A stretch of 64,000 nt of DNA. Origin: a virus (lineage: Duplodnaviria; Caudoviricetes). The stretch spans positions 22,181-86,180 of the IMG/VR virus record IMGVR_UViG_3300016670_000048. The stretch is one strand, 5' to 3'. A model generated the notes under the pieces. That model was not told the DNA's origin. It saw only the letters and a program-made list of their open reading frames with translations, and made no database searches. Shown here piece by piece: positions 2,643 to 45,576 of this stretch. The first letter of the stretch is position 1; each line of letters starts with the position of its first letter. Both the position numbers and the translations under genes were made by a program.

Positions 2643-3727
2643 CGGAAGAAGTAAAATGCTATTTGTACTGGATTAGGACGGAGGAAATGACTGACATCTT
2701 TACACAAGGTTATGTAGGTATCAGTGTGAAACCAGACTACAGGTTCTCTCAGCACAAAAATAAAGCTAAGGTTGGTAAAGTTTATAACAAAGCTTTCCTT
2801 AAGGTGTTGAAAGATGGGACAGCAATTCAGCAGATTATGTTGATAGGCTCGGTAAGCTATTGCAAGGAGGTAGAAAACAAACTGAGACCTTTATTTTATA
2901 TTGGTTGGAATGTTGCTCCCGGAGGGGGTGCTGGTGGAATTTATAAACACGGACTGTCAGGCAGTAAAATCAAAGGTATATATTATAATATACTTACAAA
3001 GATAAGAGAATCTGGGGCTAGGCTTTGTGATGAGTGGAATGACAGTGAAAATGGACTTGTTAAATTCAGTGAGTTTTACGAAGATAACGTTGGTAAGAAT
3101 CAATGTATATCTATAGCAGGATTAGACTTCATTGGTCCCAATACTGTTAAGATACAGAGTCAACAAGAGGTTGTTGCAGATACTAAAAGAAGCTTACTTT
3201 TTCAGGGGGAGATCTACACTTATAAAGAACTTGGAGACAAGTTTGATATAAAACCAAATACTCTTGTATGGCGTCTGCGAAGGGGTGAGACTTTAAACCA
3301 AGCTTTACGGCTTGAAGATAAACCCAAGCGTACTGTTAGGTTAGGTAAGCGGGAGTACGTATACAATGGAAGATTAACAGAAGATCAACTGATCATTTTT
3401 AAAAATGATGTAGAATCCGGTATCCCTTTACTGCATCTGGAAGACAAGTTTGGGATGGACTCAGGTAATCTGAGTAGGGTTGCTGCTAAACTAGGGATAA
3501 AAATTCCAAGAGTTTTTATGGAAGATATGTTGGGTGGAGAATTTGAAGTGGTCTCTCATTCAAAACTTGATGTGGAGTCTTACGAGTTAGCTAAAGAATT
3601 GCTTTTAAACGGCACTCAAAAATACAAAATAGCTGAGGAATTGGGCATCACACCTTCCTCCATGACAGATGTTTGTAAAAGATTAAGATGGAGTGAGTAT
3701 GTCGAACAGCAAAGAGCCTTGGGGTGA
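2639..3727 (+). CDS. putative free-standing homing endonuclease (GIY-YIG N-terminus, degenerate HNH-like middle, HTH C-terminus)
   Basis: YLYWI...GYVGIS...RFSQH at N-terminus; WNVAPGG; HTH-like repeats. Confidence 0.75.
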   Translation: MTEEVKCYLYWIRTEEMTDIFTQGYVGISVKPDYRFSQHKNKAKVGKVYNKAFLKVLKDGTAIQQIMLIGSVSYCKEVENKLRPLFYIGWNVAPGGGAGGIYKHGLSGSKIKGIYYNILTKIRESGARLCDEWNDSENGLVKFSEFYEDNVGKNQCISIAGLDFIGPNTVKIQSQQEVVADTKRSLLFQGEIYTYKELGDKFDIKPNTLVWRLRRGETLNQALRLEDKPKRTVRLGKREYVYNGRLTEDQLIIFKNDVESGIPLLHLEDKFGMDSGNLSRVAAKLGIKIPRVFMEDMLGGEFEVVSHSKLDVESYELAKELLLNGTQKYKIAEELGITPSSMTDVCKRLRWSEYVEQQRALG

Positions 3728-39245: not shown

Positions 39246-40754
39246 TTAAAAGCTGAATTCATTTGATTTTGTCATGCTGGGCATGGAGAAGGTTGGGACT
39301 TGGAATTTCTGTGCTAGTTGCATATAACCAAGAGAACAACAATCGACCATATCGTCGTGGCCCAGTTCGCCGCTTTTCCGGGTCCCATCAAAATTCTCTA
39401 ACTCCTTGTAAAAGAAATCGTTAGAGTTTGTGATGTTGTTCCAAAGGTCGTTTGCACAGTTGGTTACGATGGAAACAACACCTAATTCAACAGAAGCTGC
39501 GAAAGGTCTGAACGAATCCAACTTACCAGCAGGAGAGCGCCTAACTTTAGCAACAATTCCCATTTCATTAAGAGACTTGGCAATCATACTAGTTGCTGCT
39601 TTAGCTGCGGCGTTCGGATCTTCAGGAAGAATAACTTCTACAGCCCTACCATCTCTTTCCGAGTTCTCAACGATGTGTTTTACCCAATTACCAAAAGTAA
39701 TTCGTGTCCTTGTAATATCAAGGATTACATAATCACCGGTCTTGAGTTTACCCATCTTCACAGAAGCAAAGTAGTCGGGAGACCTGTTTTGATCATGGGG
39801 AAGAGTGCCTGCAAAATCGTAAGCTCGAACAATTCTTACGAAGTCTGTATGAGGTGGGGGTGCAGTCAATTCTATTAAATCTGCCCGGTCAAAGTACGAC
39901 GAATTATCGGGCCTTGCGAACCAATTGCCCCATCTAAGCCTTTCACAATCTAGCTTAGGAAGAGCTTCCAAATTTTTCTTGTAGCTGGGATTGGACAAAT
40001 TTAACGGTGGGTTATCTTCAATTGTACCAAAGAGACCTTGAAAGCTAATTGGTTCTATTTGGTCTTTATGATCAGCAGGTAGATCTGGATTGCCGTACTT
40101 TTCAATCATCTCTTCTCTGGTATCTCCCCAGACAAGATCACCATTGATTCGGAGCAAAAATCTGATTACACCATTTTTCTCTGGGTCAGGTCGACCGGCC
40201 AATGGGTGATGTTCGGGGTAGAGCCACCACATGGCATACTTAAGCACCCAACTCGCGTTGTCTGGGTTACACGACCACCACATCGAGTGTATATTATCTG
40301 CATCAGAACGGAGACGTGACCAGAGCCACCACAATTGTTCTTCATTTTCTGCGTGAGTTACCTCATCATAGAAAATGTTTGAAATTTGAATACCCTGATA
40401 TTTCTTAGCTGCGTTATCATTCTCGTAGTGAGAAAAGCTAACTTCCGCCCCGCTAGAAAAGACCAGTTTTTGATCTTTAAGACGAATCTTTAAATTGGGA
40501 TCAAACTGGCTATAAAGTTTCACAGCTTCTTGGAACAAACCACCAGAAGCCATGATTGCACTAGAGTTCTTTCGAATACAATAAGCTTTATAATTTGGAT
40601 CGTGGGCAAAGCGGAGGTGACGCATTAATCCTACGTAACTCTTTGAACTTCCTGCTGCGCCGCCCACCAAAATAATCTGGGCGTCGGAGTTGAGGTATTT
40701 TTGCTGGAACTCCGACGCTGGGCCTATAACAACTTCATCTGGTTTTAGTTTCAA
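39246..40754 (-). CDS. terminase large subunit
   Basis: Walker A GGAAGSSKS, Walker B IFYDE, CNPD, HDDMVD nuclease motif. Confidence 0.95.
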   Translation of the reverse strand: MKLKPDEVVIGPASEFQQKYLNSDAQIILVGGAAGSSKSYVGLMRHLRFAHDPNYKAYCIRKNSSAIMASGGLFQEAVKLYSQFDPNLKIRLKDQKLVFSSGAEVSFSHYENDNAAKKYQGIQISNIFYDEVTHAENEEQLWWLWSRLRSDADNIHSMWWSCNPDNASWVLKYAMWWLYPEHHPLAGRPDPEKNGVIRFLLRINGDLVWGDTREEMIEKYGNPDLPADHKDQIEPISFQGLFGTIEDNPPLNLSNPSYKKNLEALPKLDCERLRWGNWFARPDNSSYFDRADLIELTAPPPHTDFVRIVRAYDFAGTLPHDQNRSPDYFASVKMGKLKTGDYVILDITRTRITFGNWVKHIVENSERDGRAVEVILPEDPNAAAKAATSMIAKSLNEMGIVAKVRRSPAGKLDSFRPFAASVELGVVSIVTNCANDLWNNITNSNDFFYKELENFDGTRKSGELGHDDMVDCCSLGYMQLAQKFQVPTFSMPSMTKSNEFSF

Positions 40755-41645
40755 TTAACTTCCCTCACTATGAAATTCCACCCACTCCTTATCGTAATGA
40801 GGAATCCAATTTTCTCGGAACATTTCAACTAATTTATCAAAATGAAATCTAGGGTATTCTACATTTTCTAACTTAGAACAAATAGTGGCAAAAGAATAGG
40901 CTTTTGGCTTATCGTTCTCAATCCAGATATTGTAATAATTTGCGGCCATTGCCCATACCCTTGCTCGGGCTGGTCTTGCTAAGGCTGCACTTTTCTGCCA
41001 AGGTTTTAAGGATTTCTGGTACTCAGACAATTGAGCTTTTTGCTCTTCTGAAATAACCTTACCTATCTGAGCCAACCTAGATTTTTCAACAGCTTCTGGC
41101 GATCTTTTCTTACCTCGAAAAGCATCTCCAATCTTCTTTCTGGCAGACTCTGGAACTGTCCAACCGGAAGCAATTAGTTCTTGTCGCTTTGCACTTATCT
41201 TACTTTTAGTCTCTTCAGAAACTTTATGACCCATCATTTTCTGCCTACCTTTTTCGATAGACTCTGTTGTTCTTTTATGACCAGTTAGTGTTTGACGAAT
41301 CTTCTCTTTTGTTTCTTCAGAGACAACCCTATTACTCATAAACTCTGCTTTAGCAATCTTAGCTTTCTCAACTTCACGAGAAGTAAGAATACCTTTATGA
41401 GAATTTACAGTGCGTGCATAAGCCCACATCAAACTATAGTTATCAGGATTAGCTTTCCACAAAAGACGATGTGCAATCACATGCTCTCTAGGGGTAAACA
41501 GAACAAAGTTGGAATTTTTATCAGAACCACCGAGACATTTGGGGATAATGTGGTGTTTTTCAAAATAACCATCTAAGACTTTCTTATCTAAACCTCTAGC
41601 AACACACTTATCAACTAGAGCATTATAAATTTTCTGATAATTCAA
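40755..41645 (-). CDS. HNH homing endonuclease with NUMOD3 repeats
   Basis: EKHHIIPKCLGGSD...N...REHVIAHRLL; SEETKxKI repeats. Confidence 0.92.
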   Translation of the reverse strand: MNYQKIYNALVDKCVARGLDKKVLDGYFEKHHIIPKCLGGSDKNSNFVLFTPREHVIAHRLLWKANPDNYSLMWAYARTVNSHKGILTSREVEKAKIAKAEFMSNRVVSEETKEKIRQTLTGHKRTTESIEKGRQKMMGHKVSEETKSKISAKRQELIASGWTVPESARKKIGDAFRGKKRSPEAVEKSRLAQIGKVISEEQKAQLSEYQKSLKPWQKSAALARPARARVWAMAANYYNIWIENDKPKAYSFATICSKLENVEYPRFHFDKLVEMFRENWIPHYDKEWVEFHSEGS

Positions 41646-41647
41646 AC

Positions 41648-42289
41648 TTAAACACTCCCAAACTGAATCTTCATCCGTTCGGGAATTGCTTGCACTACCA
41701 ATTCTTTATAGCGATTTCGATCACCTTCGAACAAGAAGTTTTCTTCAATTGTCCCAGTGATATGTTTTACAGAATCACAGAAGCCAACAACACGACCATT
41801 AACTTTATCCAAAAGATTAGCTTTATTAGCCCAAGAGTCATCTTTCTCAAGATTCTCAATTGAGTCGATAACAACCATCTGCTTGGCTCGGAACAAATGA
41901 GCTAGTACAAAGTCTTTTGAAATGTTGGCATCGAACAGCATCAAGTCACGAGCAAGACCTTGGGTCTTTGCAATACAGTTATCACCACATGCAATAAACT
42001 TAATCTTTGAACCATTCCTCAATGTTGCAATTGCAGACTTTTCAGAGTAGCGAATATCTGAACCAAACATTTTTAGCATGTATTCTTTAACACTGCCAGC
42101 ACGATTAATATGAAACCATGTTGGAACTAAGAATGTCACATTGATATCTTGGTTATCAGAAGCTACTTGCCAAGCTTTCATAAGCAAGGCTGTAGTTGCA
42201 CCTGCTCCGGGCTCTGCTGTAATAACCGTGAGCTTCTCGTTTGATTCAAGAAGCTCTTTCTGCATCTTTGTTGCAAATACAACTGACAT
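41648..42289 (-). CDS. degenerate terminase-ATPase paralog
   Basis: Colinear with TerL N-terminal domain but Walker A is GAGAT and Walker B is LFDA. Confidence 0.7.
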   Translation of the reverse strand: MSVVFATKMQKELLESNEKLTVITAEPGAGATTALLMKAWQVASDNQDINVTFLVPTWFHINRAGSVKEYMLKMFGSDIRYSEKSAIATLRNGSKIKFIACGDNCIAKTQGLARDLMLFDANISKDFVLAHLFRAKQMVVIDSIENLEKDDSWANKANLLDKVNGRVVGFCDSVKHITGTIEENFLFEGDRNRYKELVVQAIPERMKIQFGSV

Positions 42290-42667: not shown

Positions 42668-42917
42668 AATTTCTCTCCGTTTGTTCTCAATTCATAAAAG
42701 AGATATTACGCTACGTAACAGTAGTTTGTCAAGCTTTCTTAAAAATAATTATCAATTAACTAAAAATAAATGCCAACTCTACCACCTACCCGTAAGTTGA
42801 CTCTCAGACTCTAAGATTAAGTCTGCCTTCTCCACTCGATAGCTTACCTATCAGCATTGGAACTAGACCTCCGCCAGAAGGTCTTGGGTTTCCGAACTAG
42901 GCAGCTCAGAAATTCTT

Positions 42918-43328
42918 TCAGTCTTTCTTTTCTACAGGCTCATCAAACGTCAACTTCAATCGAGGAACAAGCTTCACAATCTCAGCAGCTTCTTGCTGCT
43001 CATCTTCGTCGTCATCCGAACGCTTACCTTCTATACGGATCTTAGTCAGACTAGCCTCTTCACTAGCTGCGGCACGGTCCAAAGCAATGATGCTAGAAAC
43101 GATCCACTTCGAACTGTCCAACTGTTGAGTTTCTACTTTCTCACCTTCCACACTCTTCTTGATATTCTCAAGTGCAGTTGGTTGAATCTTACGTAGTTCT
43201 TCAGCGGTTTCACGAAGCTTAGACTTCTGGATGCGAATTTTTGAATTTGATTTCGTATTTCTATTGCTTTTCTCACCATCAAAACGATGAGCCTTCTGTG
43301 CTGCTGTTTGTTCTTTTTTGTTAGCCAT
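42918..43328 (-). CDS. probable terminase small subunit
   Basis: First gene of the packaging module; HRFDGEKS N-terminus, helical body. Confidence 0.6.
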   Translation of the reverse strand: MANKKEQTAAQKAHRFDGEKSNRNTKSNSKIRIQKSKLRETAEELRKIQPTALENIKKSVEGEKVETQQLDSSKWIVSSIIALDRAAASEEASLTKIRIEGKRSDDDEDEQQEAAEIVKLVPRLKLTFDEPVEKKD

Positions 43329-43382
43329 AATTAAATACCTATAATTTCAAGATCGCACTCAAGGTAGCGTATCACCTGAAAA

Positions 43383-43590
43383 TTTCTTAAATTCTATCAA
43401 CAGGACATACCTGCAATATACTAAGAAGTAAGGATAGAATTTAAGAAATGACCCTGTTATATTGCCTATAAAATATAGGAGAGGATACGTTACAGGCACA
43501 AGGTCAATAGCGAAATAAAGGAGGAGAGAACTTTATACGCTTAATGTCCGGCATAGAGGAGGAAGACGCCGGGAGGAAACACACCTTTCT
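43383..43590 (-). ncRNA. hairpin array with CU-rich (anti-SD-like) loops
   Basis: Four stem-loops including a perfect 16-bp stem; loops CUUCCUCCUCU, UUCUCUCCUC. Confidence 0.55.
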
Positions 43591-43622
43591 AGGATTTGAT
43601 CTTCGTGGTGTGGTGAAACTAA

Positions 43623-43707
43623 TTTGAAGTATCACGCTTTTCACGGGGCTGCCAGTAATCATTCTCTGACCCGGTATCGACTTCGGGGCTTTCGCCTATA
43701 CTTCAAA
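43623..43707 (-). ncRNA. structured RNA unit C (unknown class)
   Basis: 10-bp closing stem UUUGAAGUAU/AUACUUCAAA enclosing GGC-GAAA-GCC and further hairpins. Confidence 0.55.
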
Positions 43708-43710
43708 ACT

Positions 43711-43787
43711 TGGTGGGTCCATCCAGACTTGAACTGGAAATCAACGAATTATGAGTTCGCTGCATTAACCAATTATGCTACAGACCC
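43711..43787 (-). tRNA. tRNA with CAT anticodon (Ile2 or elongator Met), CCA encoded
   Basis: GGGTCTG/TGGACCC acceptor, CTCATAA loop, GTTCAAG T-loop, ACCA end. G1-C72 and no GGG/CCC anticodon stem, so not an initiator. Confidence 0.93.
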
Positions 43788-43790
43788 TAG

Positions 43791-43900
43791 ATTAGTTCCG
43801 CATGTGCGGGAAAGTCCACGTTCTTCCAAACTCTATAACGTTACGGTTGTAGGACTGACTTGCGCCTTGAAGACATAACCACTGTTTTGAGTAAACTAAT
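43791..43900 (-). ncRNA. structured RNA unit B (unknown class)
   Basis: Closing stem AUUAGUUU/GAACUAAU, GGC-GCAA-GUC hairpin, possible pseudoknot AGUCC/GGACU. Confidence 0.5.
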
Positions 43901-43925
43901 GATCTGTTTCTTATCAGGCGACTTT

Positions 43926-44011
43926 ATCTGGAAAGTCACATTACCACTACCAAATTAGGAGGCCAATATTGGTTTAGGCACAGATGTTCTTTCGGAGCAT
44001 CCCTTCCAGAT
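43926..44011 (-). ncRNA. structured RNA unit A (three-way junction, GAAA tetraloop plus receptor)
   Basis: 10-bp closing stem, C-GAAA-G loop, GCCUAAACC...GGUAGU receptor. Confidence 0.6.
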
Positions 44012-44155
44012 TTAAACCCACTCTTCTTCATTAGTAATTTCGTCACAACCGATATCAAGATATTCAAACATCTCTTGTGCAGAGCTAAACCGAATAAGGT
44101 TTTCACCACGATCAGTTGCATCCATCACTTCTTGAGTTTTGGTATTTGGAATCAT
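44012..44155 (-). CDS. 47-aa peptide resembling the DinJ/RelB antitoxin C-terminus
   Basis: AGGAG RBS; MIPNTKTQEVMDATDRGENLIRFSSAQEMFEYLDIGCDEITNEEEWV; absent from ORF track because of size. Confidence 0.7.
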   Translation of the reverse strand: MIPNTKTQEVMDATDRGENLIRFSSAQEMFEYLDIGCDEITNEEEWV

Positions 44156-44193
44156 TTTATTTCTCCTATGTTCGCATCGTTTTCACATTACCT

Positions 44194-44221
44194 ATTATAC
44201 AGACTTATTTCCGATTGTCAA
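44194..44221 (-). promoter_or_regulatory. consensus sigma70 promoter
   Basis: TTGACA-16-TATAAT. Confidence 0.85.
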
Positions 44222-44326
44222 CTAATATCTTTCATTTTGTTATAAAAGAATATTAACTATCAGAATCTGTAAATGTATGCTCTATACAACATTGTAACAT
44301 TATTACATTCTATTTGCAACTACTTT

Positions 44327-44518
44327 CTATTCAGAATAAGTCTCTGGAACGTAGAAAGGGTCACACTGATCTTCGAATGTATAGGTACGCGGTTCAAATT
44401 GATCGATGTTATAAACAACAGTTAGGCAGCTAGCACAGAAGTCTTCTTCACTGCCGTCATCTTGTTTCATTTTAAAATTCCTCCACGAAAGAGGCACATT
44501 ACAGCAACGACACCTCAT
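44327..44518 (-). CDS. small zinc-finger protein
   Basis: CRCC...CASC; AGGA RBS. Confidence 0.7.
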   Translation of the reverse strand: MRCRCCNVPLSWRNFKMKQDDGSEEDFCASCLTVVYNIDQFEPRTYTFEDQCDPFYVPETYSE

Positions 44519-44550
44519 CGGAGGATTCCTTTAATTAAGTTCAGAAGACT

Positions 44551-44579
44551 AATGTATCAAATAAATATCTAAAAAGCAA
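44551..44579 (-). promoter_or_regulatory. possible sigma70 promoter
   Basis: TTGCTT-17-TACATT. Confidence 0.45.
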
Positions 44580-44595
44580 GTGTTTGCGAAAATAA

Positions 44596-45576
44596 TTATA
44601 AAATTCTTATTCCTCCCATTTCAGAAAAGATATTCATAACTTGGTCTAAGTAAATAGTGTAGCAAATCTCCGACCAACCTGACTCAGAAGTATCCATTTC
44701 TAATAAACCCCTAGGGATAAGATCTTTACATTTTCTTTCCGCAGCCTTGCACTCTGCAATAGTCCCATACTCGTATATGGCAAACAGCTCATGCCTGTAC
44801 TGGGAATTATAGTTGTGTTGTATAAGTCTGTTTCTAGAGTTTTTAGATATTCCAAATTTAATAGCTACTGGAACCTGTTCATCATACATCAGATTAATAT
44901 ATGATTCTGTTTGCCTATGAAATGCACAAGAACAACCAACTTGACCCCTCTGCAAGTGTCCTTGCTGGCTTTCATATACATCTCCACACCTATCGCAAGT
45001 TATTTGCCAATAAACACACTGACCTCTCTTAGTTGTCCTGTCTATTCGTTTAAACTTGGTTTCGCTTCCAAAAGAACCTGACTCCATAAAAGATTTAATC
45101 ATAATACTTTCTGGTTTAATATTAAACTTTCTAGCAGCAGCCATTCCCTTGATATCTCTACAATTGATACATCCACGCTCTGCACTCCAAAGCATTGATA
45201 ACTCAAGTGACCAAGTATGGTTACACTTTGTACAGGATAAATTACAACGGGAGCTGGAGCCTGTATAGGGTTGGATTATGCCACAAAACCTATGTCCTGC
45301 ATTTTTAGCGGATCTTTGACTTTTAACTATAGCTTGTTGTTCTGTCCAAATAACTTTTCCTGCACAACCACAAAACAATGCACCCTTTAAGTAATTTTGT
45401 TTGTCTGTATAAAATAAAGAATCACCAAATAATTCTGTGTCAAAGGAACAAACATTGCACTTGAATATATAATCTGTTCTTTTATTATTTCTAACTGTAC
45501 CTATGTATCTGTATCTACCTGAATCTTGTAATTTATAGTCTTTCTTTATGTCTTGAATTGATCCACTGTAAATCAT
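44596..45576 (-). CDS. putative homing endonuclease, zinc-ribbon repeat family
   Basis: FKCNVC, CTKC...W, CDRCG repeats; C-terminal AIKFGISKNSRNRL. Confidence 0.72.
   Translation of the reverse strand: MIYSGSIQDIKKDYKLQDSGRYRYIGTVRNNKRTDYIFKCNVCSFDTELFGDSLFYTDKQNYLKGALFCGCAGKVIWTEQQAIVKSQRSAKNAGHRFCGIIQPYTGSSSRCNLSCTKCNHTWSLELSMLWSAERGCINCRDIKGMAAARKFNIKPESIMIKSFMESGSFGSETKFKRIDRTTKRGQCVYWQITCDRCGDVYESQQGHLQRGQVGCSCAFHRQTESYINLMYDEQVPVAIKFGISKNSRNRLIQHNYNSQYRHELFAIYEYGTIAECKAAERKCKDLIPRGLLEMDTSESGWSEICYTIYLDQVMNIFSEMGGIRIL

Follow-up and report, generated by a model that had tools for sequence, protein, structure and literature searches.

A covarying multi-hairpin RNA with loops complementary to Shine-Dalgarno sequences in the tRNA clusters of uncultured phages

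In S. aureus RNAIII and in sRNAs of the RsaE/RoxS type, C/U-rich hairpin loops pair with the Shine-Dalgarno (SD) regions of many mRNAs, without the use of a long seed. A related design is found in the cuckoo (alpha-r14) sRNAs of Rhizobiales and Rhodobacterales, including RSs0680/CcsR and NfeR1, in which two to four similarly sized hairpins stand side by side, each with CCUCCUCCC in its loop, on stems that are highly variable through compensatory changes (PMC4615179). In NfeR1, these redundant anti-SD (aSD) loop seeds occlude ribosome-binding sites (RBSs) (PMC10746234).

Few trans-acting regulatory RNAs are known from lytic phages. In phage T4, none has been characterised according to a review of the field, and the role of RNAC and RNAD, small stable RNAs produced from the T4 tRNA region, is still unknown (PMC3014915). 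At the protein level, T4 RegB targets GGAG in the SDs of early mRNAs and shuts off their translation (PMC9409239).

The window analysed here is a stretch of 64,000 nucleotides taken from an 86,180-bp virus record of IMG/VR (completeness 98%). By terminase and capsid, the nearest isolates were the Pseudomonas phages phiPMW, vB_PpS_SYP, and vB_PsaM_M1, the last of which is a Felix-O1-like Ounavirinae phage; the identity was only ~52-53%. The uncultured clade that bears the element described below consists of phages with genomes of ~85-93 kb. In the window, the element is a ~235-nt RNA encoded on the minus strand at 43382-43617, inside a 382-nt gap (43329-43710) bounded by a tRNA-Met gene and a 136-aa ORF. 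The original prediction had placed an array of hairpins at 43383-43590; the array was found there, but the element extended to 43617 and included a further hairpin (P1) and a UUCACC box. Following the minus strand from the upstream promoter, the features are listed below.

44194-44221, minus strand: perfect sigma-70 consensus promoter TTGACA-16-TATAAT (12/12 matches), pointing toward the 47-aa ORF, tRNA-Met, and the element
44012-44155, minus strand: 47-aa ORF, the promoter-proximal gene, with a strong SD (AGGAGAA)
43711-43787, minus strand: tRNA-Met (CAU), upstream of the element and on the same strand (ARAGORN; Rfam tRNA model, 63.4 bits)
43618-43710, minus strand: accessory structured spacer of ~90 nt from tRNA-Met to the element, outside the conserved family
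43612-43617, minus strand: UUCACC box forming the 5' boundary, preceded by AGU; a putative processing site, invariant in alignments A1 and A3
43580-43612, minus strand: hairpin P1 (helices 1-3), a covarying 6-bp stem with a conserved A-rich loop that holds a small AGA/UCU inner helix
43573-43579, minus strand: single-stranded CU-rich linker UUUCCUC(CC), predicted probability of being unpaired 0.98
43548-43572, minus strand: hairpin H2 (helix 4), a stem of 7 bp that includes a single G-U pair, capped by a CU loop of 11 nt, predicted probability of the loop being unpaired 1.00
43509-43541 (core 43515-43536), minus strand: hairpin H3 (helices 5-7), a conserved base of the AAAG/CUUU type and a 10-nt CU loop, predicted probability of being unpaired 1.00
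43450-43505, minus strand: hairpin H4 (helices 8 and 9, with 97% and 87% of cells paired), a basal and an inner stem capped by CCUCUCCU as a loop of 8 nt
43382-43449, minus strand: terminal hairpin T, a covarying 17-bp A/U-rich stem (UUUCUUAA...UUAAGAAA) around two small hairpins; no canonical terminator
42918-43328, minus strand: 136-aa ORF at the head of the packaging block, for a protein that is basic at its N-terminus and acidic at its C-terminus; the anchor for finding relatives

The packaging block opened by the 136-aa ORF contains a TerL-like ATPase paralog, a homing endonuclease, TerL, and the portal gene. Searches of PDB, Pfam, and PHROG with the 136-aa protein gave zero matches, and the Atlas provided weak leads only (small terminase, TM 0.43). 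A conserved UAUAGGUAAU-like motif was observed at 43336-43345 (minus strand), 8-12 nt 5' of the start of the 136-aa gene, and occurred at the same position in relatives; since this is farther away than usual for an SD, it might represent another signal. Farther into the block, in the region 41648-42289 and 40755-41645 (minus strand), a 213-aa ORF matched the large-terminase PHROG over its N-terminal ATPase part only and sits upstream of the homing endonuclease and a full-length TerL (39246-40754); it looks like a paralog of the TerL ATPase rather than a part of a split gene. On the other side, directly upstream of the unit comprising promoter, tRNA, and RNA, a 326-aa ORF (44596-45576, minus strand) matched an endonuclease PHROG and, in Pfam, contained a CapR-homology domain (E = 2.5e-14). 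At ~43798-43810 (minus strand), and also in L003, L004, and L015, a small, conserved CCGCACAUGCGG-like hairpin with AACUAAU after it stands ahead of the first tRNA; it may serve as a processing or promoter-proximal signal. The ~90-nt spacer was seen in just one other contig (L002/L013, 94.5% identity); it had no Rfam match and contained a long-range stem with one compensatory change.

The hairpins that had been listed from the letters of the minus strand were all present. A perfect stem was likewise found in T, although its length was 17 bp rather than the 16 bp initially reported, with 43382-43398 paired to 43433-43449. The aSD loops proposed at the outset held for H2-H4 and the linker, which were predicted to be unpaired with probabilities of 0.98-1.00, but not for T: its inner CUUACUUCUU stretch was half paired (predicted probability of being unpaired 0.58) and was not kept as a CU loop in relatives, and it was therefore not counted as a fifth display site. 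Overall, ~60% of the RNA was predicted to be base-paired, and the fold of the minus strand had a z-score of -4.67 against shuffled sequences (-2.63 for the plus strand). A first hairpin scan was too loose, with 88 unspecific matches genome-wide, and a test of run density was used instead; by this test, no other site of the genome (86 kb) had four CTCC/CCTC-containing pyrimidine runs of at least 8 nt inside 240 nt, as the element does, the strand mean being 0.30. Two candidate classes were set aside on anatomy, ToxI-like antitoxin repeats because the locus has neither direct repeats nor a toxin gene, and mimics of CRISPR repeats because the stems are not conserved.

Relatives were fetched from viral contigs via the 136-aa protein anchor and exact hairpin matches. 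They had a common layout, consisting of the UUCACC box, P1, the CU-rich linker, H2-H4, and T. The stems of H2-H4 had almost no sequence in common between phages, whereas the loops stayed CU-rich; the linker was CU-rich in most but not all relatives. Because the stems were too divergent, MAFFT alignments of 7 or 18 members, analysed by RNAalifold, yielded just T or nothing, and a covariance model (R1) was seeded from six members. R1 identified 32 members in the first locus set (46 sources), all of them on the gene strand, and 36 stretches came from scanning viral contigs for the pattern, with six R1-confirmed members among 25 new contigs. In total, the element was found in ~38 related viral contigs (32 + 6), in one copy per genome and always on the gene strand. 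It was present in ~39 of the 43 contigs carrying the 136-aa gene, plus two further contigs, and the genomes that do not have it beside the 136-aa gene have it elsewhere.

In the 32-member alignment, which was fitted to the model and thus leans toward the structure, 90.8% of the pair cells were standard-paired, compared with 58.2% in column shuffles (0/500 reached the observed value) and 35-42% when the columns were slid by 1-3, so that the margin was nonetheless very large. Changes on both sides were seen at 37 of the 39 pairs, with 353 such cells in this alignment. All 7 pairs of H2 showed double changes, as did 9 of the 16 pairs scored in T (7 sequences); in relatives, T spans 62-68 nt and its base, UUUCU(U/A)AA...UU(A/U)AGAAA, is conserved. 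The hairpins were also visible in independent single-sequence folds. These patterns of covariation in relatives are the decisive evidence that the fold exceeds chance.

In Rfam and among cultured phages, we obtained no match to the element. At gathering thresholds and at E <= 10, Rfam searches of both strands returned only the tRNA and chance miRNA-like matches to the long hairpin; in 50,697 records of cultured phages, blastn and tblastn gave zero homologues of the element or of its 136-aa neighbour; and blastn of 42900-44700 against cultured phages gave tRNA matches only. An R1 scan of phiPMW and vB_PsaM_M1 likewise gave no match to the element. Literature searches on the loop motif and on phage anti-SD sRNAs found nothing specific. 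In vB_PsaM_M1, a single UUGUUCUCCU-loop hairpin followed by AUCCUCC was observed upstream of a small ORF (L012 4300-4345), which R1 did not detect; in this phage, the nearest one in culture, it may be a remnant of the array. A separate non-coding stretch of ~80 nt was conserved between vB_PsaM_M1 (L012 2680-2750) and the uncultured L009 (~3600-3690), in both cases upstream of tRNA clusters.

The strand of the RNA had originally been assigned from a G-U pair, and the alignment bore out the choice of the minus strand. Among the 32 members, 94 cells were G-U and 29 were A-C, with A-C no commoner than other mismatches; in eight hand-checked members, the counts were 45 and 2, and the minus strand was favoured by a summed 68 kcal/mol. 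The folding energy of H4 was -19.8 kcal/mol on the minus strand versus -10.6 on the plus strand. Counts of G-U pairs in minimum-free-energy structures of the whole element failed to separate the strands (45 vs 34). The excess of G-U over A-C in the conserved helices indicates that the minus strand is the RNA.

With regard to genomic setting, the element had been placed upstream of the packaging genes. This is its position in the window, but in some relatives a tail-fibre-like gene or a tRNA comes next, and it is more telling that the element is a gene inside the phage tRNA cluster. On the minus strand of the window, the order is perfect promoter, 47-aa ORF, tRNA-Met, ~90-nt spacer, and element. 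At ten loci, a tRNA for Thr, Gly, Arg, Leu, or Pro lies on the strand of the element and ends in CCA; GU comes next, so that UUCACC starts 2-3 nt past the CCA. Promoters with at least 11/12 matches were found in 10 of 28 relatives, at distances of 150-1030 nt upstream and on the same strand, and five of them are perfect. We infer that a stable RNA is released from the tRNA precursor.

On the 3' side, L039 has a tRNA-Gln that begins 12 nt past T and shares the strand of the element, and T is followed in L036 by a tRNA-like sequence with a sub-threshold match (33.9 bits) to the tRNA-Sec model; thus, T is no terminator in those loci. A terminator scan found none at T and none on the plus strand. 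Among 22 T tails, at least five U residues within 8 nt occurred in only 9 and an unbroken U-tract in none, and a G+C-rich stem was found nowhere. An intrinsic (Rho-independent) terminator was accordingly rejected as the identity of T, given its A/U-rich stem, the lack of an unbroken U-tract, and the tRNA that follows it in L039; T is likely a processing or stabilising structure. In L013, L014, and L045, tRNA-like sequences with a T-arm motif were observed 20-160 nt past T, which neither ARAGORN nor the Rfam tRNA model called; they may be degenerate or intron-bearing tRNAs. The gene downstream of the element also varies, being the 136-aa gene in some phages and a tail-fibre-like gene in L010, L096, and L101, and lying 1.5-3 kb off in G001 and G002. 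The tail-fibre-like gene, which follows the element in L010 (from 2595 downward, minus strand), L096, and L101, contains Ser/Ala/Thr repeats. Its replacement of the 136-aa gene suggests that the element moves with the tRNAs in genome rearrangement.

A lack of conservation of the loop motifs in relatives had been named among the refutations of the original prediction, and the motif proved to be conserved. In the 96 loops of H2-H4 from 32 members, CUCCU occurred in 78, UCUCC in 77, and CUCUCCU in 55, and the loops were 84% pyrimidine, being C/U-rich and G-poor. The CU loops are therefore the conserved, selected part of the element, and the stems diverge freely. The consensus of the motif is CUCUCCU, and its core CUCCU is the complement of GGAG-type SDs, with AGGAGAG as the best complement. 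Upstream of the start codons of this phage (positions -18 to -4), GGAG was enriched 9.9-fold and AGGA 7.6-fold, with GGAGA as the commonest extension. On crude gene calls, GGAGA or GAGAG was present in 3 of 38 late-module initiation regions versus 35 of 98 others (Fisher p = 0.001). Predicted pairing with the loop motif also differed between late and other regions (p = 0.0095), whereas predicted pairing with the 16S tail was equal; three relatives showed the same direction, each non-significantly, and significance was thus confined to this genome. This difference between late and other SDs lends weak support to masking in trans and suggests that the RNA could spare late mRNAs. A comparative target prediction (43 orthogroups in four genomes) identified no single outstanding conserved target.

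We propose, with a confidence somewhat short of even, that the element is a stable multivalent anti-SD RNA that acts in the manner of cuckoo/NfeR1 RNAs or RNAIII and lies outside those families. The cuckoo-like design, in conjunction with the occlusion of RBSs by NfeR1, leads us to favour multivalent masking of GGAG-type SDs in trans. According to this proposal, host RNA polymerase would transcribe the element from the consensus sigma-70 promoter within a tRNA-cluster precursor. A cut at the AG/UUUCACC junction, a few nucleotides past the tRNA or spacer that comes before, would create the 5' end, this AG/UUU-type boundary being one that fits the preference of RNase E, and the 3' end would be set by T and, where a tRNA follows, by the 5' processing of that tRNA. 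H2-H4 and the linker would present copies of one pyrimidine motif in fully unpaired loops, and the RNA would then pair multivalently with the RBSs of host and/or phage non-late mRNAs and block 30S binding. A more specific scenario, which we regard as rather doubtful, is that the lytic phages of this clade ship a multivalent SD-sponge RNA together with their tRNAs, which would be expressed early from consensus host promoters, be released by tRNA-processing enzymes, and mask GGAGAG-type RBSs of host and phage non-late mRNAs while sparing late ones, whose SDs are of another type.

Alternatively, the element could work in cis as the 5' leader of the late (packaging/structural) operon and stay on the downstream mRNA, where it could recruit 30S or S1 through its loops as a standby site or enhancer, act in antitermination in a nut/put-like way, or stabilise the mRNA through T. 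In many relatives, only 23-36 nt separate T from the start of the next ORF, which leaves no room for a promoter; therefore, the element may also, or instead, be the 5' leader of that gene. This reading fits the position of the element, always upstream of late genes and on the same strand, the absence of a canonical terminator tail from T, and the weak SD of the 136-aa gene (predicted 16S pairing -3.7 kcal/mol), as well as the syntenic site of phiPMW, where a plain terminator and a phage promoter stand in place of the element. However, we consider it unlikely, as the gene downstream is inconstant (136-aa, tail-fibre-like, or 1.5-3 kb distant); moreover, the tRNA of L039 and the tRNA-like sequence of L036 lie between T and the next ORF, so that processing should sever the element from the mRNA, and a standby site would not need as many as three to four redundant loops that all present exactly one motif.

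The loops could instead be bound by a pyrimidine-specific protein. The 16S-like CCUCC occurred in only 22 of the 96 loops, and since the conserved motif thus differs from the exact 16S aSD, the ligand could be something besides SDs. In this alternative, which we would also call improbable, the CUCUCCU loops would bind S1, Rho (whose ligands are YC-rich), a factor of the 16S 3' tail, or a phage protein, or Hfq would bind the A-rich loop of P1, and the element would titrate the bound protein or load it onto the transcript. Sponges of the CsrB/RsmZ type also present multivalent identical motifs in loops over variable stems, the loops of the element are C/U-rich and G-poor, and the lack of a conserved mRNA target in the predictions is in keeping with a protein ligand. 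On the other hand, we know of no bacterial protein that specifically reads CUCUCCU, no partner gene is consistently adjacent, and the complementarity of the motif core to the most enriched SD 4-mers of the phage would become a coincidence. Rho loading in particular is at odds with an RNA that is ~60% base-paired, as rut sites are normally unstructured and poorly conserved.

Transcription of the plus strand from a weak TTGTTA-16-TATAAT promoter, to give a GGA sponge of the Csr/Rsm type for RsmA/CsrA, had been raised alongside the anti-SD reading, and we now consider it very improbable. GGA is certainly dense on that strand: 10 of the 11 copies reported lie inside 43383-43590 (208 nt) and the 11th just outside, a density in the top 0.13% (window mean 2.9), and the nearest isolates infect Pseudomonas, which has Rsm. 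The promoter-like site is also present at 43318-43345, with 10/12 matches, but it is not conserved, even a 9/12 site being found in only 6 of 28 relatives. Read as plus-strand RNA, the 94 G-U cells turn into A-C mismatches (versus 29 conversely), H4 and T lose 2-9 kcal/mol, and the transcript would be antisense to a tRNA; the terminator scan of the plus strand was empty, and the Rfam models of CsrB, CsrC, and RsmX/Y/Z gave no match on either strand at E <= 10. As for a DNA-level signal (a pac site, an origin, or a protein-binding array, with incidental or cruciform hairpins), the location of the element just upstream of the terminase block and the weak small-terminase lead of its 136-aa neighbour would suit it, but it is hardly credible, as recognition of a duplex selects neither for pairing kept despite free change of the stems nor for G-U pairs on one strand, and in relatives the element travels with tRNAs and not with terminase genes.

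Whatever its function, the element represents a new, well-defined structured RNA family that deserves a curated model; it shows strong covariation, is present in nearly every member of the clade, and has a repeated RBS-complementary motif as its selected feature. If the masking of SDs proved true, these phages would reprogram translation initiation by means of an RNA delivered with their tRNAs, and a concrete functional hypothesis would be at hand for the "orphan" small RNAs of phage tRNA clusters.

In this respect, the comparison with T4 RNAC and RNAD is one of setting and not of sequence: the element, too, lies within the tRNA cluster of a lytic phage and on the tRNA strand. To our knowledge, RNAC and RNAD have not been described with repeated anti-SD loops. 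The outcome proposed for the element would be the same as that of RegB, although RegB acts as a protein nuclease by cleaving its targets and the element, an RNA, would mask them; if the SD-sponge scenario were true, the element would be an RNA-only counterpart of RegB and the first phage-encoded global anti-SD riboregulator. With CsrB, RsmY, and RsmZ, the element shares the display of many copies of one short motif in loops on variable stems, but their GGA lies on the transcribed strand, whereas that of the element lies on the non-functional plus strand.

The analogy with cuckoo RNAs and RNAIII drawn at the outset holds at the level of design. Like RNAIII and the RsaE/RoxS-type sRNAs, the element exposes C/U-rich loops on several hairpins; unlike the element, those RNAs belong to another phylum and use UCCC/CCCC motifs, with no sequence or model similarity to it, and RNAIII is chromosomal, is 514 nt long, and also encodes a peptide. 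Like the cuckoo RNAs, all members of the family have three adjacent CU-loop hairpins (H2-H4) on variable, compensated stems. In contrast to them, its loops carry CUCUCCU (55/96) and not CCUCCUCCC, and it is phage-encoded, resides in a tRNA cluster, and has the additional P1, T, and UUCACC box; all its members are on viral contigs with Pseudomonas phages as the nearest isolates, and no Rfam family matched at E <= 10. As it differs in the CCUCCUCCC loop, falls outside the taxonomic range of the cuckoo RNAs, and is not detected by the Rfam models, the element is not a member of the cuckoo family, and the shared design is convergent, with no evidence of homology. Thus, the element is an undescribed phage RNA family that converges on the anti-SD-loop design and is unusual in having its home in a tRNA cluster; if it acts as proposed, the design of cuckoo RNAs and RNAIII would have arisen independently in viruses of Gammaproteobacteria-like hosts.
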